Shown here: positions 1 through 40,619 of the stretch, piece by piece | How positions within the stretch are numbered: the first letter of the stretch is position 1 | How the letters are laid out: the number at the start of each line of letters is the position of its first letter | Assembly (NCBI RefSeq): GCF_964204645.1 | Contig: NC_134030.1 | Span: 15,376,110-15,440,109 of the forward strand | Length of the DNA stretch: 64,000 nt | Source: Tubulanus polymorphus | Taxonomy: Eukaryota; Animalia; Nemertea | Reading direction: 5' to 3' | Program-made: the position numbers and the translations under genes | Notes under the pieces: generated by a model | Told to the model about the DNA's origin: nothing | Databases searched by the model: none | What the model saw: the letters and a program-made list of their open reading frames with translations, nothing else

Positions 1-548
1 AATGAAATTTAACATTAATGATGTAATTATACATATTAAAAATATTGCATTTTCTAATGAAACAACATTTGAGTATGAAACAACAATAGATAAAGAAACT
101 TTAAATGTAGAAAAGATTACTAATTTAATAAGAGAATCTTTAGGATTTTATGAATTAGATGAAGATTTTATCATAGATGATATTAAAAACATATTAACCA
201 AAATATATGATAATCAGTAATGAAAAGTAGTAATGAAATAAATGTTGAATTAATCATCACTAAGATAACTAAATATTTTGAAGATAGTAATTTTTTTGAT
301 AAATAAATGAGTGATAATAAGTTGATAATAACTGGATTATATAATGGAGCATTACTATCAGTTGGAACTGTTGGTTATTCAATGGTATTAAAAAAGGTAT
401 TTAAAATGGGAAGTGTTAATGTTGATAGATTTGATATCAATGATATTTTAAAATTAACAGCAGTAACTAATCTAATTTAACAATTGATTATTTAGAAAAA
501 CAAAAATATATTCCTCCCATATAAATGTTTAATTATTTTACTAAATAA

Positions 549-971
549 ATGGCTTCTGCAGTTATAACTATTATAGGATCGGCAATTGTTAACGCTTTAG
601 CATTTACTGGGGACGGCTATTTATTTAAACATATTGATAAAAATGGTTCATTATCAGAACAAAAAAGACATAATTTAGTATTAGAGAAATACAATAAAGC
701 AGCAGAAGAATATAGAGAAAAGAGACAAAACTATGTGGATTATATTAACAAGGAATTATATGATCAGAAGATTTCACACAGAGATTTTCAATCAGTTGAT
801 GATGCAATGAGTTTATATAACGCGGTAACAAATAAAGAAAAATTACATCTACATAAACCTACAATATCAGATTATTATACCCCAAGTAATGAACAGAAGA
901 AATATGAAATAATTTGGATTTTAGGGGGAACAGTTATTGTTATATTTGTTGCTTATAAATTTACTAATTAG
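549..971 (+). CDS. Polinton ORF C, 140-aa membrane protein (copy 1)
   Basis: Hydrophobic N-terminus, helical middle, C-terminal TM (IIWILGGTVIVIFVAY); paralogs at 1886 and 18437. Confidence 0.75.
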   Translation: MASAVITIIGSAIVNALAFTGDGYLFKHIDKNGSLSEQKRHNLVLEKYNKAAEEYREKRQNYVDYINKELYDQKISHRDFQSVDDAMSLYNAVTNKEKLHLHKPTISDYYTPSNEQKKYEIIWILGGTVIVIFVAYKFTN

Positions 972-1282
972 TAATTTTTTTTGCTAAATAAATGGAAGAT
1001 AAAGTTGATAATATTGATATTATTCCTCATGATATCAGTAAAACTAAATTAGAAATATATTTAGAAAAACAAATATTAGAATTTGAAAGTGAAATGTTAA
1101 ACAATTTGGAACTCAAATAAATTATAATTTAACAGAATGTGATTTTAAACCTTGCATTCCTAAATTTAATAATTTTAAGTTAGAAGTAAGAAATCATAAT
1201 GGATACTTAATTGATTTAAATAACTTTCCTGTGATATATGAATTAGTTATAAGATGTAGAGAGTAATTTTTTCATTATATAA

Positions 1283-1639
1283 ATGAATATAACTGTTGGA
1301 TCGAGTATATGTTTTGGGTTTGATTTTAAACATGAGAAAGAAATGAAATTTAACATTAATGATGTAATTACACATATTAAAAATATTGCATTTTCTAATG
1401 AAACAACATTTGAGTATGAAACAACAATAGATAAAGAAACTTTAAATGTAGAAAAGATTACTAATTTAATTAGAGAATCTTTGAGATTTTATGAATTAGA
1501 TGAAGATTTTATCATCGATGATATTAAAAAAATGATAATTGAAATATATACCAATGAAACTAGTAATGAAATAAATGTTGAATTAATCATAAATAAGATA
1601 ACTAAATATTTTGAAGATAGTAATTTTTTTGATAAATAA
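1283..1639 (+). CDS. Polinton ORF A, 118-aa hypothetical protein
   Basis: Paralogs at 2-306 (broken) and 17827; TAAATG start. Confidence 0.7.
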   Translation: MNITVGSSICFGFDFKHEKEMKFNINDVITHIKNIAFSNETTFEYETTIDKETLNVEKITNLIRESLRFYELDEDFIIDDIKKMIIEIYTNETSNEINVELIINKITKYFEDSNFFDK

Positions 1640-1861
1640 ATGAGTGATAATAAGTGGATACTAACTGGATTATATAATGGAGCATTACTATCAGTTGGAA
1701 CTGTTGGTTATTCAATGGTATTGAAAAAAGTATTTAAAATGGGAAGTGTTAATGTTGATAGATTTGATATAAATGATATCTTAAAATTAACATTAGCAGT
1801 TACTTTATCTAATTTAACTATTGATTATATGGAAAAACAAACATATATTCCTCCCATATAA
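1640..1861 (+). CDS. Polinton ORF B, 73-aa small membrane protein
   Basis: Two hydrophobic segments; start abuts the upstream stop (TAA-ATG); broken paralogs at 307 and 18187. Confidence 0.7.
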   Translation: MSDNKWILTGLYNGALLSVGTVGYSMVLKKVFKMGSVNVDRFDINDILKLTLAVTLSNLTIDYMEKQTYIPPI

Positions 1862-1885
1862 ATGCGTAATTATTTTTCTAAATAA

Positions 1886-2308
1886 ATGGCTTCTGCAATT
1901 ATAACTATTATAGGATCGGCAATTGTTAACGCTTTAGCATTTACTGGTGGTGGATATTTATTTAAGCATATTGATAAAAATGGATCATTAACAGAACAAA
2001 AAAGACATAACTTAGCATTAGAAAAATACAATAAATCAGCAGAAGAATATAGAGAAAAGAGACAAAACTATATGGATTATATTAACAAAGAATTATATGA
2101 TCAGAAGATTTCACATAGAGATTTTCAATCAGTTGATGACGCAATCAGTTTATATAACGCAGTAACCAATAACGAAAAATTACATCTACATAAACCTACA
2201 ATATCAGATTATTATACCCCAAGTAAAGAACAACAGAAATATGAAATAATATGGATTTTAGGCGGAACAGTTATTGTTATATTTGTTGCTTATAAATTTA
2301 CTAATTAG
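1886..2308 (+). CDS. Polinton ORF C, 140-aa membrane protein (copy 2)
   Basis: Near-identical to 549-971 and 18437-18859. Confidence 0.75.
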   Translation: MASAIITIIGSAIVNALAFTGGGYLFKHIDKNGSLTEQKRHNLALEKYNKSAEEYREKRQNYMDYINKELYDQKISHRDFQSVDDAISLYNAVTNNEKLHLHKPTISDYYTPSKEQQKYEIIWILGGTVIVIFVAYKFTN

Positions 2309-2311
2309 TAA

Positions 2312-2736
2312 TTGATGATAATATTGATATTATTCCTCATGATATGAATAAAACTAAATTAAAAACATATTTAGAAAAACAAATATTAGAATTTGAAAGT
2401 GACTTAAAAGTTAAAAAGAAAAAATATTTAAAAAATTAAATTATATATTATTTGATTATAAGTGGTTCAGTTACAATTAGTTCTGTAATAACATTTCTAG
2501 CAATATTCAGCCCATTAACACCTTTAGCTATATCAATTGGCGTATTAGGATTAAGTTCAAGTGTTTTAACTGGTATAAGTTCAAAATTAAATATAAAAAG
2601 TAATAAAGAAAAAATTAAAACTAATATAAAAGAAATTAATAAATTAAAGAATACACTAGATTATGTACTAAGTTTAAATGGTCATATAACAGTTGAAGAA
2701 CAAGATAAATTATTAAAAGAATTAGTTAATTATTAA
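2312..2736 (+). pseudogene. Polinton ORF D, two-TM protein (start deleted, frameshifted)
   Basis: Hydrophobic hairpin in ORF 2452-2736; paralog 18879-19310. Confidence 0.6.
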
Positions 2737-2752
2737 TTTTTTAATTATATAA

Positions 2753-4059
2753 ATGGGGTTTCCAAGAGCTTTCCAATATAATAAATCAATGAGATATAAT
2801 ATTCCTGCAATAGATTTTAAAAAAAATATTACGTATAAAAATGTAGTTTTAAATTCATTAACTAATTTAGAAATTTATGTTACTGAATCACAGTTTTTTA
2901 TTTCTAAAATGGAAAATATATTTAATACATATGAAGTTACTTTTACTCGAGATGAATATCATATATATAAAGTAAAATCTAATATGAAATATTGGCAGAA
3001 CCAATTAGATTTTGCTGTTTATTGTGCAACAACTGGTTGCGGAATAAGTTGGAATGATCATTTAAATAACTTAGATAAAAATTTGAAGTATTCTGATTCA
3101 CACAATTCACACATTAATTCAGACAATATTTAGATTTCACACATATTTTCAAATCAGAATAATATTAAATGAATTAGAATGTCCTTTACCCGGGTCTAAA
3201 TATTTTAAAGAATTGGACAATAATATTAATCTATCTAAGTTTTATACAATATGTAATGAATTTAATATAAACATTAATTCCGATTTTAGAGCGCATGGTA
3301 AATTGCAAGGTGTTGGTGAAGAGTATGAAATAAAAAGAATTGATTATATGCATAGAATTGGAGCTTATCATAATTATAAAGTTGATAATAATAATGGTTG
3401 GGTTTATTTCATTTTAGAAAATACTGAAGGTTTTACTAAAGCTGGAATACAAAGAATAAATCAATCTATTAGAACTTATTTGATATGTATTCTAGGTGCG
3501 CAAGTTGAAACAAGATCCCCAATAATTGGAAATGATACCACTTCATTTGATGCGCAGAAACAATTCAAAGTATTATTTGAAGATTCCATTCATAATGATA
3601 AAAATAGATCGATTCCAGAAAACATTGTTAGATATCGAAATTATTTAGATAAATCACATATTAGATTAAATTATTGTATAGGCCCTAATCTATTAATTAT
3701 TTCTAATGATTTAGTATTAAAGATGGGAAATATAATTGGTTTTAATAATCTTATTAAAACTGCAACAATAAATAATTCATTTGGATTAAATGATATAAAT
3801 AAAAAGATTATTACTGCTCCAAAATTAATGGAAGGTGAAAAAAATAAAAAAACATATTCAATCAACAGAAACTAAAACTAATAATATGAAATTAAATAAT
3901 GATACTAAAATAAAAGATTACAATACATCAGAAGATATAAAAACTGATAATATTCAACATGAAATAATTAAACTAAATGATGATAATAAATCCCATGAAA
4001 ATGCTAAATTAGCTATAACTTGTATAGGAATTGTAATCGGAGGAATATTATATTTTTAA
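2753..4059 (+). pseudogene. Polinton ORF E (WQNQLxFAVYCATTGCG family) with C-terminal TM, split into three ORFs
   Basis: ORFs 2753-3133, 3213-3875 and 3835-4059 align collinearly with 19327-20708. Confidence 0.75.
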
Positions 4060-4080
4060 TTTTAATTTTTTATTATGTAA

Positions 4081-5551
4081 ATGGCAGAAGGTGGAGAAGA
4101 TATTCCATTGGATGGCATGGGGAATAATAATGAAGGATATATTGATGATGATTATAATGATGCAGGTGCTAATCTTAATGAAACTAATATTGATGATGAT
4201 AATTCATCAGCGCGTAATTCTAATTTAGCAGATAGTGGTTCTAAAGCCCCATCAACAGATGAATATATTAGAGGAGCTAAATCGAGAATATATACTGAAA
4301 ATGAAAATCCAGGTTTATTAAAGAAAAATTTAGAATATCATGAATCTATGTTTAAATTCCATCCTGTATTTGAAAGATCCGGATATAATATAAATGATAA
4401 AGATGCTGGCCGTTTAGTAGAAAATTTAAAACTTTTAGATGGTGAATATTATTATAAATTGAAACATGATTATTATATTAATATCTCTTATAAAAATCAA
4501 GACAAAATATTAGCGGAAAAAACTTTGGGAAAATTAGAACCAGATAGAATTAAAAGAATAAGTAATAGTAATGTAATAACTGATGTTACAAAACAAGAAT
4601 TAACTGATAAAAATAGAAGAGTATTTAAACAAAGAATTAATGAATTATTTGAAATAATCAAAAAGAAATCAGAAACAGAAATAACTTCTGAACAGAATAT
4701 AACTTCCAAAACTAGTAAACCTAATTCAAGAGGAGTTCAAACTGAAAAACTTTTACCGAATGGATTAAATGATGCAACAGATCAAGAATTAGAAGATTTG
4801 AATAATATATTTTCTGTCGAAGCAATTAGAGAAATTAAAAGTATAAGACTTGCATCTGATAAAATCGCGCATGATAAAAGTATAACAGATTTAAAAATTA
4901 GAACTTTAGAAGTTAAATTATTTAAATCAAGAAAAGAATCGGAACAACTAAAATTAGATTGAGATAATCAAGTTATTGAAGAAATTGAATTTTAAAAAAA
5001 GAAATGCATATTTAGAAAAAGAAATTGATGATTTAAAATATAATATAGAATTACAGAGAGAAGAAAGAAATATATTATTAAAAGAATATGGTAATAATTT
5101 TAAAAGGTTAAAAGATGTTTTTAAAAGATATCTAATAAAACCAAATTCTGAAATATCATTGAAAGATAGAATAAAATTATTATTTAAGTTAGAAGGAATA
5201 ACAATTCTTTCAATTCTAACAGCTGTAACTATGTTATTTACAAAAATTGGTTTAGCTATATCAAATTCTTTGAAATCTACTCCTACTCCCAATAAACCGG
5301 ATAAACCCCCGAATGATAATTCTATACAAGATAAAGTTAAAGATGGTTTAAAGAAATTAGCAAAATATTTATGGGAACTATCTAAAAAATCTGCTGCAGC
5401 ATTGCCAGGAGTTATTGCATCAATTGTTGGTTTTATATTGAAATCTGCAGGAAACATTATTAACTTTGCTGCTGAACATATTATTTTATTTTTAATTACA
5501 GTTGTAAGTGCAATTATTTTTGGGTTAGTAAACATGATAAAAAATAGATAA
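4081..5551 (+). pseudogene. Polinton ORF G, acidic N-terminus/coiled-coil/multi-TM protein, interrupted
   Basis: ORFs 4081-4962 and 4976-5551; C-terminal hydrophobic helices (AALPGVIASIVGFIL; IILFLITVVSAIIFGL); paralog 20732-22162. Confidence 0.7.
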
Positions 5552-5571
5552 TTAATTTTTTTGTTAAATAA

Positions 5572-6789
5572 ATGAGTGGGAGTAATATCAATCCTTATAA
5601 GAATCATAGAATATCTAATGCTATTAAAGCAGAAAGATCTCATCATATAATTACTCATAATCCTTCAAATATTAATCCCGATGAAACTTTATATGTTGGT
5701 ATTCCTCGATTAACACAAAAATACTTTTTATGTTCCAAATAGTATTTATTTATCAGCCGATATAAAAGTAATCGGTAATAATAATAATTATGTTGTTGAT
5801 AATGTTGGAAGATATTTGATTAAAAAATTAACAATAAAGATCGGTCCAGAAACAGTTTTCTCATTAGATGATTATAATTTATTTATGCATTATAAAGATT
5901 TATGACTAAAGAAAATAGAAATAATATGATACTTCAAGGAATCCAATCAGAAAACCAAAATAAATTAAGATCTGAAGGACATAATGCAATAATAACTAAT
6001 GCTATAGATAAATTGATAAAAAGTATATATGGAAGCAAATATAAAATTCCATTAGACTTTGAATTGATAAATAATAATGCACCTTTATATAAATACGCAA
6101 TTCAAGAAGATGTTATATTCGAAATAACATTTGCTCCTGTTAATGAAATTGTATTATCTAGCGTTGTTAAAGATATGGGATATAAATTATCGAATATATG
6201 TTTAGAATATGATACTAAATACAATCAAGGATTTTCATTATTATATGATTATATTGATAAATTTAAAACCGTAACTATTAATGCAAATGATGAAATAATT
6301 AATGAGAATATTAACTTCCCAAGAAGATCTATTAAAGGTATATTAATATTTTTTACCATTGCAACATATACTAATGGCGCAATAAATGTTGATAATTATT
6401 ATAATCCTGAAATAACAAAAGTAGAAATAACTATCGAAGGAATAGCAAATAAAATATTTTGTCAAGGAATGAGAATGATAGATCAATGGCCAGAAATTAG
6501 AAAACATTTTATGAATGAAAAAGTAAAATCATCTGAAAATTGTAATATTAATCAAATTGATTATTATACCGGTAATAAATATGCATTATGGTTAGATTTT
6601 AGAACAACAGAGGATAATTCATTACATGGTTCTGGGAAAAAACTACAGAACACTAAAGATGGAATACAATTATTCATGAAAAAGGAAAGAGGAGACTTTT
6701 TAGAGGAAAATTTTAAAATGCACATTTATATTATATCTGACGCGCAATTAAATATTGTAAATTCTCAATTAAATAGTGTTATGTATTAA
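5572..6789 (+). pseudogene. Major capsid protein, 5' part frameshifted
   Basis: Near-identical to the intact ORF at 22204-23451; TAAATG with ATG at 5572. Confidence 0.8.
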
Positions 6790-6821
6790 AATTTTAACTT
6801 TAATAAAAATTTATATGATAA

Positions 6822-7574
6822 ATGGAAGGAGGTAAAGTATATAAACATATTCCATACATCGATACACATGAAAATAATGATGGTTTATATTATGTAATAC
6901 CTTGTAATATAGCTTTGATATTTGATCCTATTTTCAAAATTTATAAAAATAAACTAATGGAAATCGATAATAATAAAAGTGGTGTTGTTGATAATTTAAG
7001 TAATGTAATTGATAATAATGTAATACCTTCTACATCTAATAATGTAATACCTTCTACATCTAATAATGTAATACCTTCTACATCTAATAATGTAATACCT
7101 TCTACATCTAATAATGTAATACCTTCTACATCTAATAATGAAATAATATTAAATATTAGTGAAAATAGAAATTATTGTGATTATTGTAAAGGTGAATTTT
7201 CAAACGTTCCATCAAATTGGAATAAACATATGAATACAAAGACACATATTACTAATGTAATAGAACGTGTTGGTTTAAGAGAATTTATAGAACACCCATT
7301 TAAATATGTTACAAAATTTGTTTCAAATAAAAAAGTAAATGGTAAAGAATTATATGAAGATTTATTATTAGCAACACCTAATAGAGATGAATTAGATTTA
7401 ACCGATGCTAATAAAATATTAGGAGCAAACACTAATAAAGATAATAATGAAAATATAGTTACAGATATTGATAATAAAGATTCTATGAAACTTAAAGTAG
7501 AAAATAATGATAAATTTGATTGGATGAATAAGCATAACAATGAAACAACTTTTAATCCATTAATAATAATTTAG
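6822..7574 (+). CDS. 250-aa protein with C2H2-like Zn finger and (NNVIPSTS)x5 repeat
   Basis: YCDYC...HMNTKTH motif; occupies the position held by integrase in the inner element. Confidence 0.65.
   Translation: MEGGKVYKHIPYIDTHENNDGLYYVIPCNIALIFDPIFKIYKNKLMEIDNNKSGVVDNLSNVIDNNVIPSTSNNVIPSTSNNVIPSTSNNVIPSTSNNVIPSTSNNEIILNISENRNYCDYCKGEFSNVPSNWNKHMNTKTHITNVIERVGLREFIEHPFKYVTKFVSNKKVNGKELYEDLLLATPNRDELDLTDANKILGANTNKDNNENIVTDIDNKDSMKLKVENNDKFDWMNKHNNETTFNPLIII
7014..7140 (+). repeat. 24-bp coding tandem repeat x5
   Basis: AATAATGTAATACCTTCTACATCT repeated exactly five times. Confidence 0.95.
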
Positions 7575-7582
7575 ATTTTGTT

Positions 7583-7927
7583 TCAATGGCTTTCAATGGC
7601 TTTATGATTTGACTTATTTTCTGGTATGATTGGTTTATTATCATTGGAATCTTTATCATGAGATTTGAATTTTGATTTATATATTACGCCGGATAATACA
7701 ATAATTGTGATTAACCCAATTGTAATATATAAGTAATTATTTCTTCCACTATTAGAAGAATTAGATGGATTATTATTTGAATTAATATCAGATAAAGTCT
7801 GTGATTCATTTATATCAGTTAATTTCTTTTTCTTAGCTTTTTTTAATTCTGAAGATCTTTTACCGAATTCTCTTGCCCATTTAATTTGTTTCTCGGATCT
7901 AACCTTTTTCTTAACGCCATCACTCAT
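7583..7927 (-). CDS. Polinton ORF I, basic N-terminus plus single TM
   Basis: RSEKQIKWAREFG matches RSQKQIEWSRQLG of 26054-26407 (opposite strand). Confidence 0.7.
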   Translation of the reverse strand: MSDGVKKKVRSEKQIKWAREFGKRSSELKKAKKKKLTDINESQTLSDINSNNNPSNSSNSGRNNYLYITIGLITIIVLSGVIYKSKFKSHDKDSNDNKPIIPENKSNHKAIESH

Positions 7928-8527
7928 TTATTTTAGTTAATTTTTGTTCTGATTCATTTTCTGTTTCGCCGTTTGGTTGTAGTACAGCGTCATCTGTTTT
8001 GTTCTTACCTGATTTATATTCCATAGGTATGATATTCGAAAATGTTATGACGCCAGTAGAAATTAATGTCATAACCGATCCTAATTGAAATGAAGCATAT
8101 CCGACCCATTTTTTAATTCAGTCATAACTAAGTAGTCATTTTTCAAATCACTATATAATTTATTTTCATCATCAATTGGTATTAACTGGTTACATAACTT
8201 AGAGTAACATTTTATAATACCATCACTTATAGAGTCGTTTATTCTAGCTAATCTAGCTTCTTCATAAATCTTAAAATATTTTATTACTTTATCGGGTTTC
8301 ATAGCATCTAATTCTTGAAAAGTTATTATTTTCCCGATAAACTGATTACATTTACCACTAGTAATTAATAATTCTAGATGGTGCTTACAATATAAATAGT
8401 ATTCATAATCAATATTACAATTAATATTATTTTCAATTTTGATTGGAATATCCTTATTATCACTAATACCTAAATCATCTAATGTTTTTTCAATATCAAT
8501 ACTATTCTTACTCGATTTCTTTGACAT
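7928..8527 (-). pseudogene. Polinton ORF H (YEYYLYCKH family), frameshifted near 3' end
   Basis: ORF 8081-8527 homologous to the broken gene at 25519-26053. Confidence 0.65.
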
Positions 8528-8772
8528 TTATATTAGAGAAATTTAATAAGAAAAATATTATAAGTATTATAAAATGATACCAGTATCTCTTTAGATTAAT
8601 ACTAGCTTAGTTAAAGGTAAATAATTTTAGTATTAGTTATTGTTTTTTAGTACTTTTTATTTGTGATATAAAGTATTCTTTTTGAAAAGAAAATATTAAA
8701 AAAACAATAACTAATACTAGCTAGTTGAAGATATGTAATTTTTAATACTTTTTATTTAAAATCTATTATTCT

Positions 8773-9438
8773 TTAACCACTCATTAAAGACTCAACGTAT
8801 TGTTCATTATTTGGATTATTGTTCCATTGATCAATAAATTTCTTTGCCTTTGTTAACTGTTCTAAATATAACTGTAAATCTAGTTTATTAGATTTGATTT
8901 GATTTTCTTTCTTTTCAAGAGGTCTTAAATTTTTCCAACCCCAAATAAGTTTTTTATTGTATTCATCATTCATGTTAAATTTAGATATTGGTAACACATG
9001 ATCAATATGGTAATAATCCCCATAATTATCTATGTTCATTTTATCGTCGAATTGAAATATAATCCATGATTTGAGAAATTCATCTGAACAACCCAACAAA
9101 TTAGATAATGTTTCTGAATGTGTTTCTTTGTTGAATAATTGTGTTAATCTAGATCTTAAGCATTGTTTCAATCTAAAATTAAGATCTGTTTGATATCTTT
9201 CTCTCATATATTCTGCCATATAATAATTATAATGTTCTATATCATCTTCTCGATATTGTTTGGTATATAGTTTAGTGCAAGTTTTGCAGCAATATTGAAA
9301 ACCATCTTTGCTAATCTTACGCTTACTAAATTCTGTAAATGGTTTATCTAATTCACATTTAGAACACTTCTTGTAGTATATATTTATAACACCAGTGTTA
9401 TTTGTAATATTGATAATTTGTGGTTGTTCTGGTTCCAT
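8773..9438 (-). CDS. Zn-finger/HNH (endonuclease VII-like) nuclease of the type common in large DNA viruses
   Basis: CSKC...CKTC Zn motif, LLGCS, HIDHVLP...WKNLRPL...N..K HNH-type core; intact 221 aa. Confidence 0.75.
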   Translation of the reverse strand: MEPEQPQIINITNNTGVINIYYKKCSKCELDKPFTEFSKRKISKDGFQYCCKTCTKLYTKQYREDDIEHYNYYMAEYMRERYQTDLNFRLKQCLRSRLTQLFNKETHSETLSNLLGCSDEFLKSWIIFQFDDKMNIDNYGDYYHIDHVLPISKFNMNDEYNKKLIWGWKNLRPLEKKENQIKSNKLDLQLYLEQLTKAKKFIDQWNNNPNNEQYVESLMSG

Positions 9439-9575
9439 TTATTATACGTATTTTTTTACTAAATTGGTTAATATTTTAGAATCCCCTTCCATTTCTTCGA
9501 CCAACGTCATCCTTTTTCATTCCTCGTTGCTTTTGATAAGTCGTTTCGATTCCTTGATATCTAAATCATACCACA

Positions 9576-9969
9576 AGGCAAAACCGCTCTTATAGCAGCG
9601 CTTTTGCTTAATGCGCATGCGCTAATCATAATTATATATTCATTCTGTAAATTCTGTAAAATAGAAACGACCGACATAAAATATCAAAACGTGTTCGCAT
9701 TAGGCAAAACCGCTCTTATAGGAGCGGTTTTGATCAATGCGCATGCGCTAATCATAATTGAAACGACTGAACATAAAATATCAAAACGTATTCGCATTAG
9801 GCAAAACCGCTCTTATAGGAGCGGTTTTGATCAATGCGCATGCGCTAATCATAATTGAAACGACTGAACATAAAATATCAAAACTTGTTCGCATTAGGCA
9901 AAACCGCTCTTATAGGAGCGGTTTTGATCAATGCGCATGCGCTTATCATAATTGAAACGACTGAACATA
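9576..9969. repeat. 97-bp tandem repeat x4 with internal hairpin and GCGCATGCGC palindrome
   Basis: Units start at 9576, 9702, 9799, 9896; CAAAACCGCTC-ttatag-GAGCGGTTTTG stem (degenerate in unit 1). Confidence 0.95.
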
Positions 9970-10684
9970 GAACATTCACCAAGTAGATTTACACAATACA
10001 TTATACAAGTATGTTCAGTCGTTTCTTCCAATACATCATTTGATTTCTATATATAAAATCTATAATTACAAACATTTTTTCAATTGCTGGTAAATATTTA
10101 ACGACATCAACAAATATTAAACTTAATCATTGGAGTCTTAATGTTTTTGAAATTCTTATATAGTTTATTCGTTGATCTTTTGTGATTCTTGTGGTTCTAC
10201 GCCAGTTTCTATTGGTTCGATATCCATTGCTGTTGATTCCTCCGTCAGAAAGAGTATCTTGAGTTTCTCTATCGCTTCTTGATGTGTGTGACGGTTTATT
10301 AATCTAAAAGATATTAGCGGCAACTCTAGCTATCTAAAAGATATACTAAATACACTTAAATATATATATAAAGGTTTCATATTTAATAGCCCTAATAACT
10401 ACAAAAAAACAGTACTCACATTTAGATTTAGAATTGAAACTATAAAATCCTAATTTCGTTTCGAGAGATAGAATATCCTAAGCGTTATGTTACAGCGTCT
10501 ATTCAGAATTCTAGAATTTTCTACGCGTTTTCAGTATTATGACTCATATGTCTCAGCGTTATAGTAACAACTGTGACAGCTGTGAATTTATAGATTTATT
10601 CCATAGCTCTTTAAATGGAATGTATATAGGCTCAAATATAATCATGCTCTAGTATAAACAGCTATGTATTATATCATGTATATA

Positions 10685-10766
10685 AGTAATTGGAAAAGTG
10701 GGGTTTCAGATCAGAGGGCGAGACACCACTCATCACCACAAGTAATTTTTTTCCCTAATAAATGGG
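10685..10766 (+). repeat. Left terminal inverted repeat
   Basis: Reverse complement of 26861-26950; includes the TAAATG start of pPolB. Confidence 0.93.
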
Positions 10767-13700
10767 GGAGAATGAACAACAGCCAGAAAATAATAATGTT
10801 AATAAAAATCAATATTATTGCACATATTGTAAAAAATACGTCGATACATCTCATAAAACACGACATGAAAAAACTGCAAATCATATAAATGTAATAGATT
10901 TTGAAACTTCAGAAAATTCCAATGAAAGAAAAGAACGATTAGAAAATATGAATGTGGATGAAATAAAATGTGAAGTTTGTAATGAATTCATAACAAAAAG
11001 GAATTATAATAGACATCTCGAATCACAAAAACACCACCAAAATTTGAGTAATAATGTTTTAGGAAAAGATTATTTTGATGATAAACCTCAAAAAGTAAAA
11101 AAAAAACAACTTCAAAAACTAAATCCATTTCAAATAAACCTTACATGGAAAATGTTAGAAATTATATTGATTCACTAGAAATAAAAGATACAATTGAAAT
11201 TTTAGAAACATTACATAGTAAAATTGGTCCTGCAGCTATTATATTTAGATTTTTTAAAGGTACAACAATAGAAGATTATAGTAAATTTAATGAAATAATA
11301 GAAAAAATACTAGATTTGATAACAGATGTTGAATATCCAAAAATTAGTATCTCTGGGAAAGTAAGTTTTATAAAGTCAGAAGAAAAAATGGATTATAATA
11401 TTCAAACACTCTCTGAAGAAATAATTTCAAAAACACAAATAAAAGAAGTTAGAAAAAATATTTAATGAATTTAAACGTCATATTGAAGAAAGATATTTTG
11501 AGGGTTCTAGCTTAACATTGAATGAAATTATATATTTAGATTTAAATGTTTACAATACAAAAAGGAATAAAACATCAAAAAGTAATAAAATGTTTAAAAA
11601 TGATTCAAACTTTACAACAGAAAAGGATATTAAAGCATCATCTTATATTAAATTACCATTTACAACAAAAGCAGTAATAAATGTTCAAAATGAAGATAAT
11701 AAATGTTTTCTATGGTCAATTATTAGTTGTTTACATCCAATACAGGAAAATGTTTGTAGAATAACAGATTATCGGAAATACGAAACATTATGTAAAATTG
11801 ATCAATATCCAGTAACTATAAAAATGATTCCTAAAATAGAAAAAGTTAATCATTTAAAAATAAATGTATTTGAATTAATGAAATTACCAAAGACAAAAGG
11901 TGAAAATATTAAAGATTATACATTGGAAGCTTTATATTTAACAGAATATTATGATGATGAAAATGCTATAGATTTGTTATATTACAAAAAAGATGAAAAT
12001 GAACATTATATGTGGTTAAAACAAATTGATTTATTCTTTAGAACAGAAAGTGATCACCATCATAAAATTTATCTATGTAGAAAATTTTTATCTAAATTTA
12101 TGACTGAGAATACATTATTAAAACATAAAGAATTATGTGATAATAAAGATTTTTGTAAATTAATAATGCCAACAGGAAAAAGATTATAAATTGAAATTTA
12201 CTAATCATAAATTTAAAAATATTGTTCCATTTGTAATTTATGGGGATTTTGAATCGTTGAATAAAGAATTAACTGATCAAGATAGAAAAGAAATATATAA
12301 CAAAAAGCAATTATTAAAATCAATGGATAAAGGAAATGAATTAAATGAAGACACAATACAAGACCCACCAATTATAAATACAATTAAAAAAGTTCATCAA
12401 AGAGCTGCTGGTTATGGAATTTATATAAAATCAAATTATCCCGAATTATATGAAAGTCAATATATTTCTTTAAGAGGTGAAGATGTAGTTAATGATTTTT
12501 GTGACAAAATGATTGAATTAGAAAGTGATTTTGCAAAATTATTAAACAAAAATAAAAGAATAGTTATGACAAAAGAAGATGAAATTGATTTTAATTATGC
12601 AACTCATTGTTGTTATTGTGAAAAACGTTTTTATTCATTTGATAAAAAAGTTAGAGATCATGATCATTTCAATTCAAAATATCGTGGAGCTGCTCATGAA
12701 GATTGCAATTTACAAGCTAAGAAAGTTAATTTCGTACCAATATTATTTCATAATTTATCAGGCTATGATACCCATCTATTTATAAAACAATTATCAAAGA
12801 ATTTGGGTACAATTAATCAAGAAATAGAAGAATATAATGCTATGAATGGTGTAAATGTAAGAAAATATGATATTATTATCCAAATGACCAAGATTTTAAA
12901 TTATTGAGATATAAAGGCGCAATTCCTTATTCATTTTATAAAACACACAATGATTTTAATGTAACAGAATTATTAAAAGATCAATTTTATGATCAATTAA
13001 AAGAGGAGTATGTGAAAGACGAAGTGTTTAATAGAACATTAAATACTTGGAACCATTTTAAGATGAAAAATCATGGCGAATTAGTTGATTTATATTTAAA
13101 ATCAGATGTTATGATATTAGCTGACATATTTGAAAAATTTAGAGAAGTTAATTTGAATCATTTTAATGTTGATCCTTGTTATTGCTACTCTAGTCCTGGT
13201 TTAACCTGGCAATGTGGTTTAAAATATACAAATGTAGAATTAGATTTATTAAAAGAACCAGATATGGTTCTATTATTTGAAAAATCAATTAGAGGTGGAA
13301 TTAGTGGTGTTATGGGAGATAGATATTTTAAAGCAAATGATGAATATAAATTATTATATATTGATGCCAATAATTTATATGGTTGGGCAATGATACAAAC
13401 CCAACCATACAAAAATTTTATATTAACAGAAGTTGAAAATGATAACAAAACTGATTGGGAAAGCGCAATTGCGAGTTTAAAAGATGAAGCACCAATTGGT
13501 TATTTCTTTGTAGTTGATTTAGAATATCCTGAAAATATAAAGTTTAAAACAAGAAACTTACCTTATTGCCCAGAACATTTAACTGTATATGATAGTTATT
13601 TAAGTGAATACCAGAAGAAAATAAAACCGAAAGATCATGTTTTTACAGAAAAATTAATACTTACTCAAAATAATAAATACAATTATATCGTTCATTATAG

Positions 13701-15690
13701 AATGTTAAAATTTTATCTAAAACAAGGAATGAAATTAAAGAAAGTACATAGATATATTGAATTTAATCAATCGAAGTGGTTAGAAAAATATATAGATTTC
13801 AATACTCAACAGAGAACAATATCAAAAACAGATTTTGAAAAAGATTTCTTCAAATTAATGAACAATAGTTTTTATGGTAAAACATGTGAAAATATTAGAA
13901 ATAGAAATGATATTGAATTAGTAAATAATTCTGAAAGATTAAGACATTTACAATCAAGTCCTAGACATTTAGGAAATAAAAGATTTGAAGATTATTTAAC
14001 AGCAGCTATTAAATTAAAAAGAACGTCAATGAAATTTAATAAACCTATATTCATTGGTTCAACTGTTTTAGAAGTATCAAAATTATTAATGTATGATTTT
14101 TATTATAATGTTTTACAACCACTTTTTGGGGAAAAGCATATTGAAATATTATACTTTGATTCTGTAACAGCTGACACCCCAATATTATTAAAATGTAATA
14201 ATAAAATATTGATAAGAAGAATTTCAGAAATAATTCCAAAACAAAATGAATGTTATATTTCATATGGTGAAAAAGAATTAATACAAATAAATGGTTTAAT
14301 GGATGTTTGGACAAGAAATGGATGGAAAATATTAAAGAATATTATTAGGCATAAAACAAATAAGAAAATCTATAGAGTTAGAACTAAATTAGGGTTTGTA
14401 GATGTTACAGAAGATCATAGTTTAATTACACGAAATGGCGATGAAATAAAACCAACTGATATAAAAATTGGAGATGAATTATTACATAAAAGATTTTTCC
14501 AAAGAATGAATCATATGTCATTTGATGAAATAATTGATAATATTTATAACATAGAACCCGAAACATTAGAAGAAAAAGAATATTTTATCAAAGGATTTTT
14601 CATGGGAGATGGTTCAGCAGGTGTGTATAATTATGTTAATCGCACTCAATATTGCTGGTATTTATGCAATCAAGACTTAAAATTATTAGAAAGAATAAAG
14701 AAATTCTGTGAAGAAGTTTATCCAAATAAAACATTTAAAATCATAGATGTTATGAAATCATCGCAATGTTATAGAATACATGTGAATAATCCTAAAGATT
14801 TTGCTATAAAATATAATGACGAATTCTATATTCATGCAATAGTGAAAAGTAATACTTCAACTAAAGAAAAGATAGTTCCAGATTATGTATTAAATGCAAA
14901 AAATAATTTAAGAAAATGGTTCTTCATTGGATTCTACGCAGCAGATGGTACTAAAAGTTTCAAAAACCGCAAAACAATATCTTTAGCTCAAAAAGGAAAA
15001 GTTGCTATATCAGGATTGAATATATTATGCAATTCATTAGGTTTTAATATGAATATTGGATTGATTAAATCTAAACCAAATTGCTTTAATTTAAGCCATG
15101 TAGAAAATGAGTTAACAGAAGAAGTTAAGGATTTATTTGAAATATATAACCCATCAGATTATGTTTATGATTTATCAACTGAAGATGGTACATTTAACTG
15201 TGGATTTCCATTAATAGCAGTCAATACTGACGCCTACATACTAAAAATCAAGACAAATGATATAACAAAAGACTTAAAAACATTAAAACATCATTTTGAT
15301 TTTAGCAATTATCCCAAAGATCATGAACTATTTAGCAATGATAATAAAAAGATTCCTGGTAAGTTTAAAGATGAATTAGGGGGTGATGAAATGATTGAAT
15401 TTGTTGGGATAAGAAGTAAAATGTATAGTTATAGAACAAAAGATCATGAAGCTAAAAAGTTATAAGGAATAACAAAACATGTGGTTGATAAACATATGGA
15501 ATTTCAAGATTATATAAAGTGTTTATATAAATCAATTGTAATGAAACACAAAATGAATTGTTTAAGATCAGAAGATCACGAGATGTACATTAATGTACAT
15601 TAATTAAGTTGAAAAACTAGTTTAAATCCATTTGATGATAAAAGGCATATTTTAGATGATGGAATAAAACGATTACCTTATGGTCATTAA
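10762..15690 (+). pseudogene. polB: Protein-primed family B DNA polymerase (N-terminal Zn fingers, vOTU-like region, EndoVII-like Zn module, exonuclease, polymerase) with intein; several frameshifts/stops
   Basis: NEDNKCFLWS...HY; YGDFES (ExoI); VRDHDH...YRGAAH..CN; FHNLSGYD (ExoII); YLKSDV (ExoIII); SIRGG; YIDANNLYG (A); KLMNNSFYGK (B); YFD/TD (C); KMY; terminal PYGH. Confidence 0.95.
14161..15225 (+). mobile_element. 355-aa intein with LAGLIDADG homing endonuclease in pPolB motif C
   Basis: YFD|SVTADTPILL...VTEDHSL (block B)...IKGFFMGDG...FIGFYAADG...YVYDLST (block F)...IAVN|TDA; removing it restores YFDTDA. Confidence 0.93.
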
Positions 15691-22203: not shown

Positions 22204-23451
22204 ATGAGTGGGAGTTATATAAGTCCTTCTAAGATTTCTAGAATATCTAATGCTATTAAAGCAGAAAGATCACATCATATTATTACTCATAATCCTTCAA
22301 ATATTAATCCCGATGAAACTTTATATGTTAGAATCCCTCGATTAACACAAAATACTTTTTATGTTCCAAATAGTATTTATTTATCAGCTGATATAAAAGT
22401 AATTGGTCATGATAATAATTATGTTGTTGATAATGTTGGAAGATATTTGATTAAAAAATTAACTATAAAGATTGGTCCAGAAACAGTTTTCTCATTAGAT
22501 GATTATAATTTATTTATGCATTATAAAGATTTATGGTTAACTAAAGAAAATAGAAATAATATGATATTTCAGGGTATTCAATCGGAAAACCATAATAAAT
22601 TAAGATCAGGAGCTAATGACGCAATAGTAACTCGTGCCACAGATAATTTGATTAAAAAGATTTATGGAAGCAAATATAAAATTCCATTAGATTTTGAATT
22701 GATAAAAAATAATGCACCTTTATATAAATACGCAATTCAAGAAGATATTATATTTGAGATAACATTTGCTCCTGTAAATGAAATTGTATTATCTAGCGTT
22801 GTTAAAGATATGGGTTATAAATTATCGAATATATGTTTAGAATATGACACAGTAACTAATGAAAATATTGCTAGCACAATTCAAACTCAATACAATCAAG
22901 GATTTTCATTATTATATGATTATATTGATAAATTTAAAACTGTAACTATTAATGCAAATGATGAAATCATTAATGAGAATATTAACTTCCCAAGAAGATC
23001 TATTAAAGGTATATTAATATTTTTTACCATTGCAACATATTCTAATGGCGCAATAAAGGTAGATAATTATTATAATCCTGAAATAACAAAAGTAGAAATA
23101 ACCATTGAAGGAATAGCAAATAAAATATTTTGTCAAGGAATGAGATTGATAGATCAGTGGCCAGAAATTAGAAAACATTTTATGAATGAAAAAGTAAAAT
23201 CATTTGAAAATTGTAATATTAATCAAATTGATTATTATACCGGCAATAAATATGCATTATGGTTAGATTTTAGAACAACAGAGGATAATTCATTACATGG
23301 TTCTGGGAAAAAACTACAGAACACTAAAGATGGAATACAATTATTCATGAAAAAGAAAAGAGGAGACAAAAATTTTAAAATGCATATTTATATTATATCT
23401 GATGCACAATTAAATATTGTAAATTCACAATTAGATAGTATTCAATATTAG
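22204..23451 (+). CDS. Double jelly-roll major capsid protein, intact 415 aa
   Basis: Size, position next to integrase/ATPase, and motifs ITHNPS, N.GR..IKKL, YKDLW, RSIKGILIFF, KYALWLDFRT...LHGSG, DAQLNI recognised from invertebrate Polinton MCPs. Confidence 0.82.
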   Translation: MSGSYISPSKISRISNAIKAERSHHIITHNPSNINPDETLYVRIPRLTQNTFYVPNSIYLSADIKVIGHDNNYVVDNVGRYLIKKLTIKIGPETVFSLDDYNLFMHYKDLWLTKENRNNMIFQGIQSENHNKLRSGANDAIVTRATDNLIKKIYGSKYKIPLDFELIKNNAPLYKYAIQEDIIFEITFAPVNEIVLSSVVKDMGYKLSNICLEYDTVTNENIASTIQTQYNQGFSLLYDYIDKFKTVTINANDEIINENINFPRRSIKGILIFFTIATYSNGAIKVDNYYNPEITKVEITIEGIANKIFCQGMRLIDQWPEIRKHFMNEKVKSFENCNINQIDYYTGNKYALWLDFRTTEDNSLHGSGKKLQNTKDGIQLFMKKKRGDKNFKMHIYIISDAQLNIVNSQLDSIQY

Positions 23452-23481
23452 AAATATAAAGTTAAAATTAAGGATATATAA

Positions 23482-24610
23482 ATGGGTGGTAAAAAAAACT
23501 CCTAATACTAAAGAACAATATTTAAGAAATTTATATTACAACCCTGAGAGTTCGGTTGCTTATTCTTCTACCAAAAATATATGGCGTCAAGTGAAACAAG
23601 ATAAATTAGATAAGATAATCCCACAAAATTTAGTTAAATATAAAGATATAAATGAATTTAAGTTAGAACAACCAACATACACAACACATAAAAAAATTGT
23701 TAGAAAATATAAAACTCGTAAAACTATGGTAAGTTATGTAGATCAACAGTGGCAAGGAGATTTAATTGATATGAAAAATGTTAAGAAAGATAATGATGAT
23801 TATTGGTGGTTATTGAATATAATTGATATTTCAGTCGTTATGTATGGAGTTTCCCACTTTATAGAAAAGATGCTGTACAAACATCAAATGTTTTAAGAAA
23901 ATTTCTTTCGGATGATAAACTAAAACCAGAAAAAAATACAATTTGATGATGGAAAAGAGTTTGATAATTCACTTGTTCATGAACTCTTAGGTAATCATAA
24001 TATTAAATATTTTTCAACAAAATCGGATAAAAAAGCAGCAGTTGTTGAACGATTTAATAGAACATTAAGAACAAGAATGTGGAAATATTTTACAGCAAAT
24101 AATACTTTTAAATGGATTGATGTTTTACCAAAATTGATAGAAGGATATGATAATTCTTATCATTCTTCTATTGGAATGAAACCTATTGATGCTAGAAAAC
24201 CTGAAAATGCTGAAATTGTTTGGAATAATTTATATGGTGCATTTCTTGTAGATGATTTTGGTGAACCTAAATTTAAAGTTGGTCAAAATGTTAGAATATC
24301 TAAGTATAAAAAGATATTTGACAAAGGATACGATCGAAATTTTACTAGGGAAATATATAAAATAAAAAAGGTAATAACAACAAAACCATATGTCTATAAA
24401 TTAGAAGATTTAGATGGTGAAGAAGTTGATGGCTACTTTTACGAAGAAGAATTAAGTTTAACTACTGAAAATCTAGAACAAGAATATAAAATTGAAAAAG
24501 TATTAAAAACAAAAACTATTAAAAGAAAAAAATATTCTTTAGTAAAATGGGTTGGATGGCCAGATAAATTTAATGAATGGATATTATCGAGTAAAATTAA
24601 AAATATATAA
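23482..24610 (+). pseudogene. Retroviral-like (c-)integrase with C-terminal chromodomain, frameshifted
   Basis: LYYNP, WQGDLIDM, QFDDGKEF, KAAVVERFNRTL, YDNSYHSSIGMKP, chromodomain YKIEKVL...LVKWVGWPDKFNEWI. Confidence 0.92.
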
Positions 24611-25214
24611 ATGAATAAGGAATTATTTATATTTGAGCCTCATAATATGTTAATATCTGGCGTAACAAATTTTGGAAAAACTTATTTTATATTAAATTTA
24701 TTAGAAACTGTTTATGAAAACTATTTTGATAATATAGTATTATTTTGCCCAACATATGAATTTAATCAAACTTATGATAGAAATATTACTAGAAATAATA
24801 AATTTATTATATTAGATCCTAAAACAGTAAAAGAAAATTTAGATAATTGTATAAAAATAGCAATTGATATTTATAAAGGATCAAATACATAATTTATCAT
24901 AGATGATTGCGCAAATTTACATGATTCAAAGAGAAAGTGAGTTATGTTATCTAGCTTTCTCTGGGAGACATTTTGGGATAACAACATGGGTTTTAAATCA
25001 AAAATATAATTCAATTGTTAAAGACTTTAGAGAAAACATTAGATTTCTAGTTTTATTCGACAATAAAGATAGAAAATCGATGAAAAATGCACTTGAGGAA
25101 AATGATATTATTCCACATGATTTACATAATGAATATATGGATAAGTTGAAAAATATTAAAAGATCAAAATTACTATTTAGATTACAACACCCATTTAAAT
25201 ATGAATTTATTTAA
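24611..25214 (+). pseudogene. A32/FtsK-HerA family DNA packaging ATPase, stop plus frameshift
   Basis: Walker A GVTNFGKT, Walker B FIIDDC just after the stop at 24890, SGRH arginine finger, LNQ motif. Confidence 0.88.
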
Positions 25215-25216: not shown

Positions 25217-25490
25217 TCAACTAGCTTGTTAATCTAGTTGAATTCTAGTTACATTCTAGTTGAATTCTAGTTATTGGTAGTTGTAACAAAAATCAACTAG
25301 ATTTAACAATATTTTAACTAGCTTGTTAATCTAGTTTAATTCTAGTTACATTCTAGTTGAATTCTAGTTGTTAGTAGTTGAAACAAAAATCAGCTAGATT
25401 TAACAAGAAATAAACAAAAACAACAATATTTCAACTAGCTTGTTAATCTAGTTGAATTCTAGTTACATTCTAGTTGAATTCTAGTTGCAA
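25217..25490. repeat. Intergenic CTAG-rich repeat x3 built from 11-bp subunits
   Basis: AACTAGCTTGTTAATCTAGTT(G/T)AATTCTAGTTACATTCTAGTTGAATTCTAGTT at 25219, 25316, 25433. Confidence 0.92.
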
Positions 25491-26568: not shown

Positions 26569-26865
26569 TTAATCAACAATTTCTAAATCATGATGGCCAT
26601 CTTCATGGCAATCTTTTAATTCCTCTGTACTCAATGAAACCCATTTATCAGGTAAAAATACTTTAAATTCTCGCGATGTACTAACATTACAGTAGCTTGA
26701 ATTAGCTGATACTTTCTCTCCATATTTAGTTTTTATCTTTTCTAATTTCAATATTTTATGTTCAATTTCTTTTGTAACATCAACTAACTTTTTTATTTCA
26801 AATTGTTTTTTTGCTGGTTTTATTCTGTTATTTATTGTTGCTAAGAATGCTTTTCTATCTCCCAT
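26569..26865 (-). CDS. 98-aa hypothetical protein starting inside the right TIR
   Basis: TAAATG start supplied by the TIR. Confidence 0.6.
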   Translation of the reverse strand: MGDRKAFLATINNRIKPAKKQFEIKKLVDVTKEIEHKILKLEKIKTKYGEKVSANSSYCNVSTSREFKVFLPDKWVSLSTEELKDCHEDGHHDLEIVD

Positions 26866-26950
26866 TTATTAGGAAAATAAATTACTTGTGGTGATGAGTG
26901 GTGTCTCGCCCTCTCGCCCTCTGATCTGAAACCCCACTTTTCCAATTACT
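26861..26950 (-). repeat. Right terminal inverted repeat
   Basis: Reverse complement of 10685-10766 with a short CTCGCCCT duplication. Confidence 0.93.
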
Positions 26951-27159
26951 TATATATGAATTATTTCAATCATACTTTACTAACACTTTTAATGTTTAAA
27001 AATCTAACTCGTACAAATATAAATATTGAAATAATGTTTAAAATATATCTATATATCTATTCTATAAGAGCTCGTTAATTACTGGTTACTTTTAGATCGA
27101 ATAATCTATCAATTTATATGTTATTCATGTAAATTATGTTTATTTATGAATATTTTAAG

Positions 27160-27352
27160 AGTAATAGGGGTAATGGGCTTTCAGGTTAAAGGTTGAGAGG
27201 TTGAGAAATTTTCCAAATGTGAAATAATAATAATTTCTACTTGAATTAGGAGTGTACGCGACTAATTCAAATAGAAATTATTGTTATTTTCACATTTGGA
27301 AAATTTCTCGACCGTTCGACCTTTGACCTGAAAGCCCATTACCCCTATTACT
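27160..27352. repeat. 193-bp fold-back made of two Polinton-TIR-like arms
   Basis: AGTAATAGGGGTAATGGGCTTTCAG...CTGAAAGCCCATTACCCCTATTACT; ~90-bp arms, 12-nt spacer. Confidence 0.9.
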
Positions 27353-27449
27353 CGCGTTAACTAAACATTTTTGAACAGAACGGTTGAAGATGAGTGTATA
27401 GATCAATAGAATGCATCATATTTTGAAATAAAATGAAAAAGTGTCAGTT

Positions 27450-32844: not shown

Positions 32845-34450
32845 TGTAGCCGCGACGCCCGGAGCCTCCCTCGGAGAGGTGGGTGACTCAACGGAGAGGT
32901 GGCGCCAGGGTAGCGTTTACGGAATAAAGGATGGTACGATCTCAAAGTGTCCGAGTTCCAAGGCTTCTTCGTCAGGGCATGGCTACAAGGGTCCGCCTTC
33001 GTCGAACAATCCCGGGTAGTAGGACTGCAAAGGGGAAAAGTCATCCTCCGAAGGTTGATAAATGGACAGCGGCTGACTCAAGGGAAAAAGGGGTTCCACG
33101 AGGGCTAAAATAGTGTCAGAGGTGAGTGCGAATCGTACCCCACAACCCCATTGCTGGATGAATGGGTCACCAGACCAGTCAGGACGAGTGTCCGCCGTGT
33201 GATCAGTCAAGTCAGGGCCCTTGACAAGACGCGAGATCACACGGTCACCCGAGCACCGGCGCCTACTTCTCCTCTGGTATCCTCTGGTGTAAAGTGTCAT
33301 TCCAAGTGCCTCCAGCACGTAGCTCTCGCAACCGGCTTCTTTGGCTTGCCCCAGCTTACTATGGACTCATGTGACACACAAATTAGGGGAATAAAAGGGA
33401 CACAGGCCTCCTCCTCTACTCGCGACAGAGAAAACGAGAGTTTTAAAATTCAATATATATTAATAATATTTTCCAAATTTAACTCGTACGTTCATATAAA
33501 TGAAATGTATATTATATTCTATAATTAAACAGAATAAACTTTTAAAAATCAACGTAGAAAACTTGCTCTGATTCATTATTTTTAACAATCTAATAAATAA
33601 TCTAATTATTGCATTTGCCCGGAATTTAAAAAGGTCGAGCTTATTATGTCTACGGATATATACATAGATTAAGCTCAAAGATCATGTGTCAAGAAAAGAA
33701 TTGACAGAACCGGGTCGCCGAGTTGACCCCGATAACGTTGAACTGACGGCATCTCAGAATTTATATATAGGTCGCCACGTTGACCTATATAAAACGAGAT
33801 TTAATAGATCGCCAGGTTGATCTATTAAAGTCAAAAGGGAATCAAAGTGATTATAGGTCGCCAAGTTGACCCAGAGCACAAGATCATTAAGCAATAGTCT
33901 TCGTAACGAGGGTCCTACCCGACGCCAAGAGGACTCGGCGCCGGGTTGAACTACGTACCTCAGATAATTTGAGCGAACTCACTTTCTCAATTCAAAAAAA
34001 TGCAAGGTGACGTCACGCTGCACTCAGCGCTGATTGGCTGAGTGCCACAATGACGTCAGGAATGCGAGCAACGTGACGTCACATTACAACAAAATGGCGG
34101 ACATTAGAGCGAGAGGAGGTAATTTTTATATAAAACCTAATATAATTAAGTTATAAATGGACGGAACGATAAGAAAAATACGTGAAAACATTTTGATCCA
34201 AGGTTTATACATTCTGTACAAATTTCAAAGCGATACGATAATTTAAAGGTGTGGGAAATGATCGGACAAAATTGCAAAAAGGGGAGATTTAGAAAAGTTG
34301 CGCTAATTACCGCCCAAAACCGACCGACCATTTCCAACACCGGAAATACAAAACTATGATTTATAAAATCAACCACGCGCAGGGCGGCGGAGGAGCTTTG
34401 CAGAAGAAAACACCCCGAAAAACAACTACGGCAAGGGATTTTCCGCTACA
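32845..34450 (-). repeat. 3' LTR
   Basis: TGTAGC...GCTACA; about a dozen substitutions versus 40620-42225 by eye; G-rich PPT adjacent at ~34453-34470. Confidence 0.96.
34005..34135. promoter_or_regulatory. LTR promoter motif cluster (repeated at ~41780-41910)
   Basis: Three TGACGTCA (CRE-type) sites, ATTGG/CCAAT, AAAATGGCGG (YY1-type), TTTTATATAAAA. Confidence 0.55.
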
Positions 34451-34500
34451 AAGCCCCCCCACCAGCCCTGAACGTCCTCGTTCAGACGAGGCGACATAAC

Positions 34501-40615: not shown

Positions 40616-40619
40616 ATTT

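Follow-up and report, generated by a model that had tools for sequence, protein, structure and literature searches.

In the window, which is the complete 64-kb stretch of DNA that was analysed, positions 14161–15225 of the plus strand encode a class 1 intein that is complete and includes a LAGLIDADG endonuclease; both protein splicing and DNA cutting are predicted for it. The intein interrupts the protein-primed PolB polymerase (pPolB) of an element that is classified as a decayed Polinton. We consider it probable that this is an intein of the pol-c site, with predicted splicing and homing, whose lineage entered Polintons once, long ago, from the polymerase of a giant virus.

The 355-residue translation extends from Ser1 to Asn355 and is preceded by the residues ILYFD and followed by TDAYIL. 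It consists of a Hint splicing domain in two halves, which surround an endonuclease with two LAGLIDADG motifs. Ser1, the N-terminal nucleophile of block A, is encoded at positions 14161–14163 of the plus strand, as are all the following elements. Block B contains the TEDH motif (T83–H86, 14407–14418), in which T83, D85 and H86 are invariant in an alignment of 42 rows. The first LAGLIDADG helix, block C, has the sequence FIKGFFMGD150G and includes Asp150 (14584–14616), and the second, block E, has the sequence FFIGFYAAD262G and includes Asp262 (14920–14949). Between them lies Lys237 of block D (14869–14871), which aligns with the lysine of PI-PkoII. Blocks F and G (15163–15225) provide Asp337 in the motif VYD337L, a GFPL signature, the penultimate Val354, and Asn355. 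The C-extein starts with Thr+1 (15226–15228), so that the intein lies within motif C of the polymerase, D/TD, where the slash marks the insertion point. All the residues of a class 1 intein are thus present (S1, T83xxH86, D337, N355, and T+1), and so are the features of an endonuclease, namely D150, D262, K237, an I-DmoI-like fold, and a match to the PF14528 profile above its cut-off. The penultimate residue of class 1 inteins is usually, but not universally, a histidine, and the Val of the window intein, neither His nor Lys, is a deviation that the first-pass annotation had left unmentioned. Among 281 relatives from which inteins were extracted, this position is occupied by Val in 3, His in 122, and Lys in 116; the counts of first and +1 residues in the same set are partly determined by the extraction rule and carry little weight. 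Given the base composition, 355 codons in a row without a stop have a probability of approximately 7e-17. The closest intein-less polymerases (P0294, P0400, P0295, P0297, and P0300) read YFD/TDS with nothing in between, and therefore the boundaries of the insert are exact.

The intein N-terminus profile TIGR01445 matches the translation with 32.4 bits (cut-off 24.5), and the Pfam profile LAGLIDADG_3 (PF14528) with 30.6 (cut-off 22.5). The score of the Pfam profile Intein_splicing (PF14890), 32.5 bits with an E of 9e-8, is slightly below its cut-off of 35.8. An AlphaFold model of the intein, calculated from the 42-row alignment, has a pLDDT of 88.5 and a pTM of 0.90. Its best match in the PDB is TliVMA (7qsu, E 1e-17, TM 0.66), and the other top matches are also inteins that contain endonucleases: PI-PkoII, PhoVMA, PI-PfuI, and PI-SceI (2cw7, 7qst, 1dq3, and 1vde). 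These are followed by I-DmoI (E 2e-7) and mini-inteins. The score of TIGR01445 and the similarity of the model to both full and mini-inteins indicate that the predicted protein has the Hint fold. The two-domain fold is shared over the whole length with the solved inteins 7qsu, 2cw7, 1dq3, and 1vde (TM 0.44–0.66); however, their sequences are only 12–18% identical to that of the window intein, they occupy other host genes or sites, and their DNA targets are different. Among viral structures, the best matches come from the polymerases of a phycodnavirus, a pandoravirus, a marseillevirus, and a megavirus.

The reading frame around the intein matches PF03175, the family of protein-primed PolBs, with an E of 2e-15. 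Comparison with the intact natural relative P0400 indicates that the pPolB gene spans approximately positions 10762–15684. Its N-terminal part is distributed over four overlapping frames (10762–12907, plus strand). The frame switches near 11.1, 11.45, 12.18, and 12.89 kb, and about 40 codons are missing at the fourth of these positions. The open part of the N-extein that matches PF03175 (12871–14160, plus strand) is 83–84% identical to the intein-less P0400 and P0294. The C-extein (15226–15684, plus strand) is interrupted by a nonsense stop at 15463–15465 and is again locally disrupted near 15.6 kb. With these six lesions, none of which is in the intein, the polymerase of this copy is probably dead, and because the upstream frameshifts make the production of a full-length precursor unlikely, the copy is probably a fossil. 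It had been pointed out in the first-pass annotation that the intein is open while its host gene is broken. The observation stands; however, the open frame of the intein continues over 1,290 bases upstream and 237 bases downstream of it, and the chance that none of six lesions falls into the 21.6% of the gene occupied by the intein is 0.23. Therefore, the open frame does not demonstrate special selection on this copy, and it was rejected as a sign of selection or activity. A weak match to HNH-type endonuclease VII is located within the polymerase gene at 12575–12715 (E 0.002; the corresponding value in P0142 is 1.5e-6), and the pPolB of the window may thus include two nucleases, one similar to endonuclease VII and one within the intein.

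The element that contains the polymerase gene is approximately 16 kb long, has a GC content of 22–25%, and is bracketed by inverted repeats (left arm 10679–10769, right arm 26858–26956; 89% identity over 99 nt). Polintons have terminal inverted repeats and a 6-bp target duplication; at either end of this element only the 99-nt inverted repeat was found, not the true termini or the target duplication. Three more genes, all on the plus strand, are typical of such elements. The open gene of the major capsid protein (22204–23451) encodes 415 residues and matches Pfam Capsid_N with an E of 0.01; its Atlas look-alikes at 0.97–0.98 include clusters of jelly-roll capsid proteins, with a recognition value under the threshold of the tool. 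An integrase-like gene in two frames (23435–24610) ends with a chromodomain (E 1.5e-4), and its core was recognised by eye and has no Pfam match. The gene of the A32-type packaging ATPase (24611–25214) is frameshifted, with a Walker A motif in the sequence and a match to Pox_A32 in the second piece (E 0.01). Several of these matches are weak, and the combination of pPolB, integrase-like, ATPase, and capsid genes is the reason for filing the element as a decayed Polinton; no ORF was assigned to a maturation protease in the gene annotation. The same set of genes, within approximately 16 kb between inverted repeats, is shared with Polintons, Mavericks, and adintoviruses (PMC8502044 and PMC11131425); by contrast, the ends and the target duplication of the copy in the window are eroded.

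The site of the insertion corresponds to the pol-c position of archaeal and giant-virus PolBs. According to a passage in PMC549080, the pol-c site of Mimivirus and archaea reads YGD/TDS, and the window conforms to the pattern YxD/TD in motif C. The inteins of archaea, Mimivirus (351 residues), and other giant viruses described there share with the window intein the site, Ser1, TxxH, two LAGLIDADG motifs, Asn, and Thr+1. Hundreds of homologs of the window intein are found in RNA-primed PolBs. However, pol-c inteins interrupt RNA-primed PolBs (PF00136), whereas that of the window resides in a protein-primed PF03175 polymerase of an integrating Polinton. All that the first-pass annotation had reported about the insert agrees with these results: 355 residues between YFD and TDA with Ser1, TEDH, two LAGLIDADG helices, block F, Asn, and Thr+1, each of which is legible in the translation; a full LAGLIDADG intein, as supported by the motifs, the Hint and LAGLIDADG profiles TIGR01445 and LAGLIDADG_3, and the model fold; and a pol-c position within the pPolB of a Polinton.

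In the class 1 pathway, the formation of an ester at Ser1 is helped by TxxH, the N-extein is transferred to Thr+1, and the asparagine cyclises. Splicing by the Ser1, Thr+1, and Asn355 route would restore the D-T-D motif of the polymerase. Because the insert splits the catalytic motif, it must be removed for the polymerase to function, and an intact element would be unable to replicate without splicing.

The intein of the window belongs to a family. A search of longer proteins provided 383 matches, of which the first six are pPolB-type proteins with an intein at the same site and 47–63% identity. In at least 14 other clusters, formed at 90% identity, the intein is combined with a pPolB extein (P0002–P0007, P0010, P0012, P0042, P0080, P0157, P0296, P0298, and P0299). 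The intein of P0157 is 76–79% identical to that of the window (76% over the C-terminal half). The other listed matches are mostly RNA-primed PolBs (PF00136), with a few in topoisomerase-type and other host genes. The residues before the site are YGD in 245 of the 281 extracted relatives; the Polinton family reads YFD, YMD, YSD, YLD, and others. The nine full-length Polinton inteins that were tested are 42–77% identical to each other, and all nine have the GFPL signature and both endonuclease aspartates. The best matches among viral contigs are giant-virus MAGs, with up to 41% identity. None of 37 viral loci and the best 80 of 130 metagenome loci exceeded 41% identity over the full length, and no Polinton-type intein DNA was identified among them; three pPolB DNA loci that were examined lack the intein. 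A prokaryotic source or contaminant was rejected, as the best matches in prokaryote genomes are 30–35% identical over the full length and fall outside the clade of Polinton inteins.

Related inteins occur in several other hosts. A protein named as the DNA polymerase delta catalytic subunit of Chloropicon primus (P0101) contains a related full intein at the same motif C site, and hence in a replicative polymerase of a cellular eukaryote. PolB inteins of a Promethearchaeota MAG (L118:3001–3984) and an unclassified archaeal MAG (L121:3001–4005) are approximately 35% identical to that of the window and group with virus-type inteins rather than with other archaeal pol-c inteins. Members of the intein family are also found in type II topoisomerases at the site DxD/TDG (P0091, P0115, P0117, P0121, P0319, and P0325), the resemblance of which to polymerase motif C hints at another jump through a shared short motif.

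Polinton polymerases with and without the intein are intermingled. In a polymerase tree of 30 rows (15 filled and 15 empty), from which P0301 and P0405 were left out because the site pattern was not found and P0006 because it does not align, the distribution of the intein requires eight changes, of which at least six are forced by supported branches. The presence of the intein is no more clustered than that of shuffled labels (61 of 500), which suggests that it has been repeatedly lost or regained. The nearest polymerase relatives of the window copy (84% identity) are empty, and its flanks match those of its own empty relatives at 15–17 of 18 residues; no conversion tract was detected at its site in this comparison.

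Filled and empty alleles can be compared directly within two clusters. The P0003 cluster has 136 members, of which 40 were read, on contigs of up to 1.0 Mb; among the 15 members listed, 7 are filled, 6 are empty, and 2 are fragments. Filled and empty polymerases of this cluster are 97–100% identical in all bins upstream of residue −10. By contrast, the ten residues on either side of the site are 58% and 60% identical; the value is 77–90% between +10 and +50 and 96% farther downstream. Three site haplotypes, 76% alike at the site, occur among the empty copies. The 18 flanking residues of filled copies match those of P0004 and P0005, whose polymerases are 65–72% alike, at 15–16 positions, compared with 10 in their own empty siblings. 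It is the pattern that homing or target escape would produce, either as the footprint of co-conversion or through the encounter of an old filled allele with resistant empty ones, and the data contain no direction. Since the distance between P0003 and P0005 is almost the same in the intein (69% identity) and the polymerase (72%), the replacement of an old filled allele by resistant empty ones fits as well as a new invasion. In the P0007 cluster (121 members, 15 listed), the filled P0139 and the empty P0142 have the same residue at 571 of 577 and at 169 of 169 positions, those of the flanks among them, and P0142 has the sequence of a plain empty target. The empty alleles P0128 and P0130 read YTD/CDS, with Cys in place of Thr between the catalytic aspartates, a change that possibly provides escape from the endonuclease. 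In these relatives, alleles of both kinds support the previously proposed spread of the intein among Polinton copies.

P0006, a single record on a 5.3-kb contig, has a PF03175 polymerase without BLAST similarity to the N-extein of the window (best E 3.8). Its intein is 47% identical to that of the window and belongs to the same clade, which suggests that the intein jumped once to an unrelated class of pPolB.

These observations can be connected by a homing cycle. The intein, once freed by splicing, would cut the empty motif C sequence in the polymerase gene of another Polinton, and homologous repair would copy the intein and some of its flank into the cut allele. Since translation of the polymerase is the only source of the endonuclease, homing would be most likely when Polinton genomes are expressed and replicated together in a nucleus. 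Empty alleles with recoded flanks would escape cutting. Closely related elements would lose and regain the intein in a long-lasting cycle, with a later single jump to the class of P0006; the copy in the window would be a fossil of that cycle. We put forward only tentatively, at somewhat less than even confidence, that such a cycle is live in animal genomes, with an intein derived from giant viruses that spreads between Polintons in nuclei, is escaped by recoding, and jumps between pPolB classes.

It is also conceivable, although rather unlikely, that the intein splices but no longer homes, that it came down together with the polymerase from a single ancestor and was independently lost many times, that recombination alone maintains filled and empty alleles, and that the divergent flanks only reflect a large indel by which exchange is prevented next to it. 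The identities of inteins and polymerases are correlated (Spearman 0.57 for 28 pairs of eight proteins, with 81 of 5,040 sampled permutations as high), the two trees display similar groups, and the intein appears to have largely co-diverged with the polymerase after its capture; inheritance with loss therefore explains much without frequent homing. The similar distances of P0003 and P0005 in both proteins and the lack of direction in the identity dip around the site are in line with this. However, all nine inteins have retained both endonuclease aspartates despite a divergence of more than 50%, the losses would have to be both repeated and precise, and the three site haplotypes among empty alleles that are otherwise 96–100% alike, as well as P0006, are left unexplained.

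The origin of the family was studied using two maximum-likelihood trees of 50 and 47 rows, chosen from the 281 extracted inteins and archaeal ones; the trees leave out the long-branch P0371, near-duplicates, and most of the 281 relatives, and L125 was also dropped for the AU test of the basal position. The nine full-length Polinton inteins form one clade with 100/100 support in both trees, and this clade is placed among the motif C inteins of virus-type RNA-primed PolBs, in line with the earlier assignment to the pol-c type. A single capture into Polintons is well supported by these sequences. The sister relationship of the Polinton clade to viral inteins of the GFPL type has 86/97 support in one tree and is an open fork in the other. 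The intein and the N-extein have the same GC content at third positions (0.155 and 0.142, respectively), and therefore the capture is old. A recent private capture by the element of the window was rejected on the basis of the shared clade and the codon composition, which is the same as that of the host gene. The first-pass annotation had suggested homing from a large DNA virus: the nearest non-Polinton relatives are indeed inteins of giant-virus-type PolBs; however, the capture is old and shared, and when the tree is rooted with distant archaeal pol-c inteins, the AU test does not reject the placement of the Polinton clade at the base (p 0.057). A giant-virus donor and the direction from virus to Polinton are thus favoured, not proven. 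The basal position would also be compatible with Polinton inteins that are an old sister group of the giant-virus pol-c inteins, or that were acquired from a protist Pol delta or an Asgard-type PolB, without any need for co-infection, and the inteins of Chloropicon and Promethearchaeota described above could be read in the same way. We regard this as unlikely, as the clade lies within the virus-type inteins in the best trees, a grouping of all 37 RNA-primed PolB inteins to the exclusion of the Polinton clade is rejected with the topoisomerase-type inteins as outgroup (AU p 0.007), and the C-terminal signature G-[FYTS]-P-L is common to a set that includes the giant-virus MAG contigs L001, L002, and L007.

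To the right of the Polinton, the window contains a LINE fragment and a Gypsy LTR retrotransposon (32845–42225, minus strand), with 1,606-bp LTRs that are 99.3% identical and one stop in pol before the integrase. Nine of the 120 listed relatives of the Gypsy protein are named by organism, and eight of these are animals, the ninth having the label of a bacterial MAG. Because of these neighbouring retroelements and the animal relatives, it is likely that the intein is located in an animal chromosome. That the contig is chimeric or the AT-rich element comes from a non-animal organism, as might be suspected from the rise in GC from 22–25% to 35–47% near 27 kb and from the fact that only retroelements and no host gene were identified in the rest of the 64-kb window, is very improbable given that the insertion recurs in 14 independent pPolB clusters, including the closely related P0157, that the intein and N-extein match in codon composition, and that the decayed element adjoins a second diverged copy in addition to the LINE and Gypsy sequences.

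The closest precedent comes from PMC10710043, according to which viral-like DNA polymerase genes that contain inteins lie on nuclear scaffolds of Klebsormidium, Tetrabaena, and Hondaea; there, too, the intein is part of a nuclear genome by way of an integrated virus. Those hosts are algae and a protist, whereas the host here is likely an animal and the intein is carried by a Polinton that exists in multiple copies, includes an integrase-like gene, and has relatives with empty sister alleles. PMC10748475, where the term intein does not occur, describes inserts of HNH and VSR nucleases in the pPolBs of Polintons. These are also nuclease domains that move between lineages of Polinton polymerases; however, the passages on them describe no splicing domain, and the insert in the window contains a complete Hint domain and divides the catalytic motif. 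According to one sentence in PMC11071308, endonuclease insertions in the pPolBs of Polintons might have arisen through invasion by inteins. The main texts of PMC11131425, PMC8502044, and 10.64898/2026.06.19.733378 do not contain the word intein, and PMC12220804, PMC3671162, PMC9939771, PMC4104785, and PMC13768754 mention inteins in other contexts. No splicing-type intein, with Hint and LAGLIDADG domains, was found in a pPolB in full-text searches of the literature; supplements, RepBase, and subscription journals may hold a mention. As far as literature searches reach, this is the first splicing-type intein in a protein-primed polymerase.

Inteins are stated to be absent from metazoan genomes in a passage of PMC5784728, which lists viral polymerase inteins, including those of Iridoviridae, and this absence is the assumption behind the use of intein inhibitors as antimicrobials. 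The family described here places a complete intein in a likely animal chromosome, although its immediate location is a virus-like element rather than a host gene, and suggests that inteins spread in animal genomes inside Polintons. The pol-c intein has gained a new class of host, in which it forms a Polinton-specific family with indications of a homing cycle. A passage of PMC549080 calls it implausible that homing could connect genes as far apart as the PolBs of archaea and Mimivirus. Judged from the sequences, distant homing through the short D/TD motif appears to have happened twice, from RNA-primed to protein-primed polymerases and then between pPolB classes, and two such jumps make the rules of distant homing testable. 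If the intein is common to both, it is a fossil mark from which it follows that Polintons and giant viruses shared cells. The retention of endonuclease residues and the polymorphism of the alleles would also indicate, indirectly, that Polinton genomes come into contact and recombine during their expression. If the homing cycle is live, protein splicing would be a required step of replication in some animal Polintons.

Other repeats were observed in the window, in which no tRNA genes were found. The second Polinton-like copy (1–9900) is 87–93% identical in DNA sequence to the region 17.6–23.5 kb and has an internal tandem duplication of 1.34 kb and a broken capsid gene; its polymerase lies outside the window. 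Two different 97-bp tandem arrays with internal palindromes are located near the ends of the two Polinton-like copies (9660–9969 and 25219–25406). Inverted repeats of approximately 450 bp (83% identity), 5.5 kb apart and without a long ORF between them, are positioned at 53106–59519 and are possibly a decayed DNA transposon. Just outside the inverted repeat of the Polinton, a 195-bp hairpin with 66-nt arms of 92% identity (27159–27353) starts with AGTA and ends with TACT, as Polinton termini do, and it may be a very small non-autonomous derivative or a junction formed end to end.
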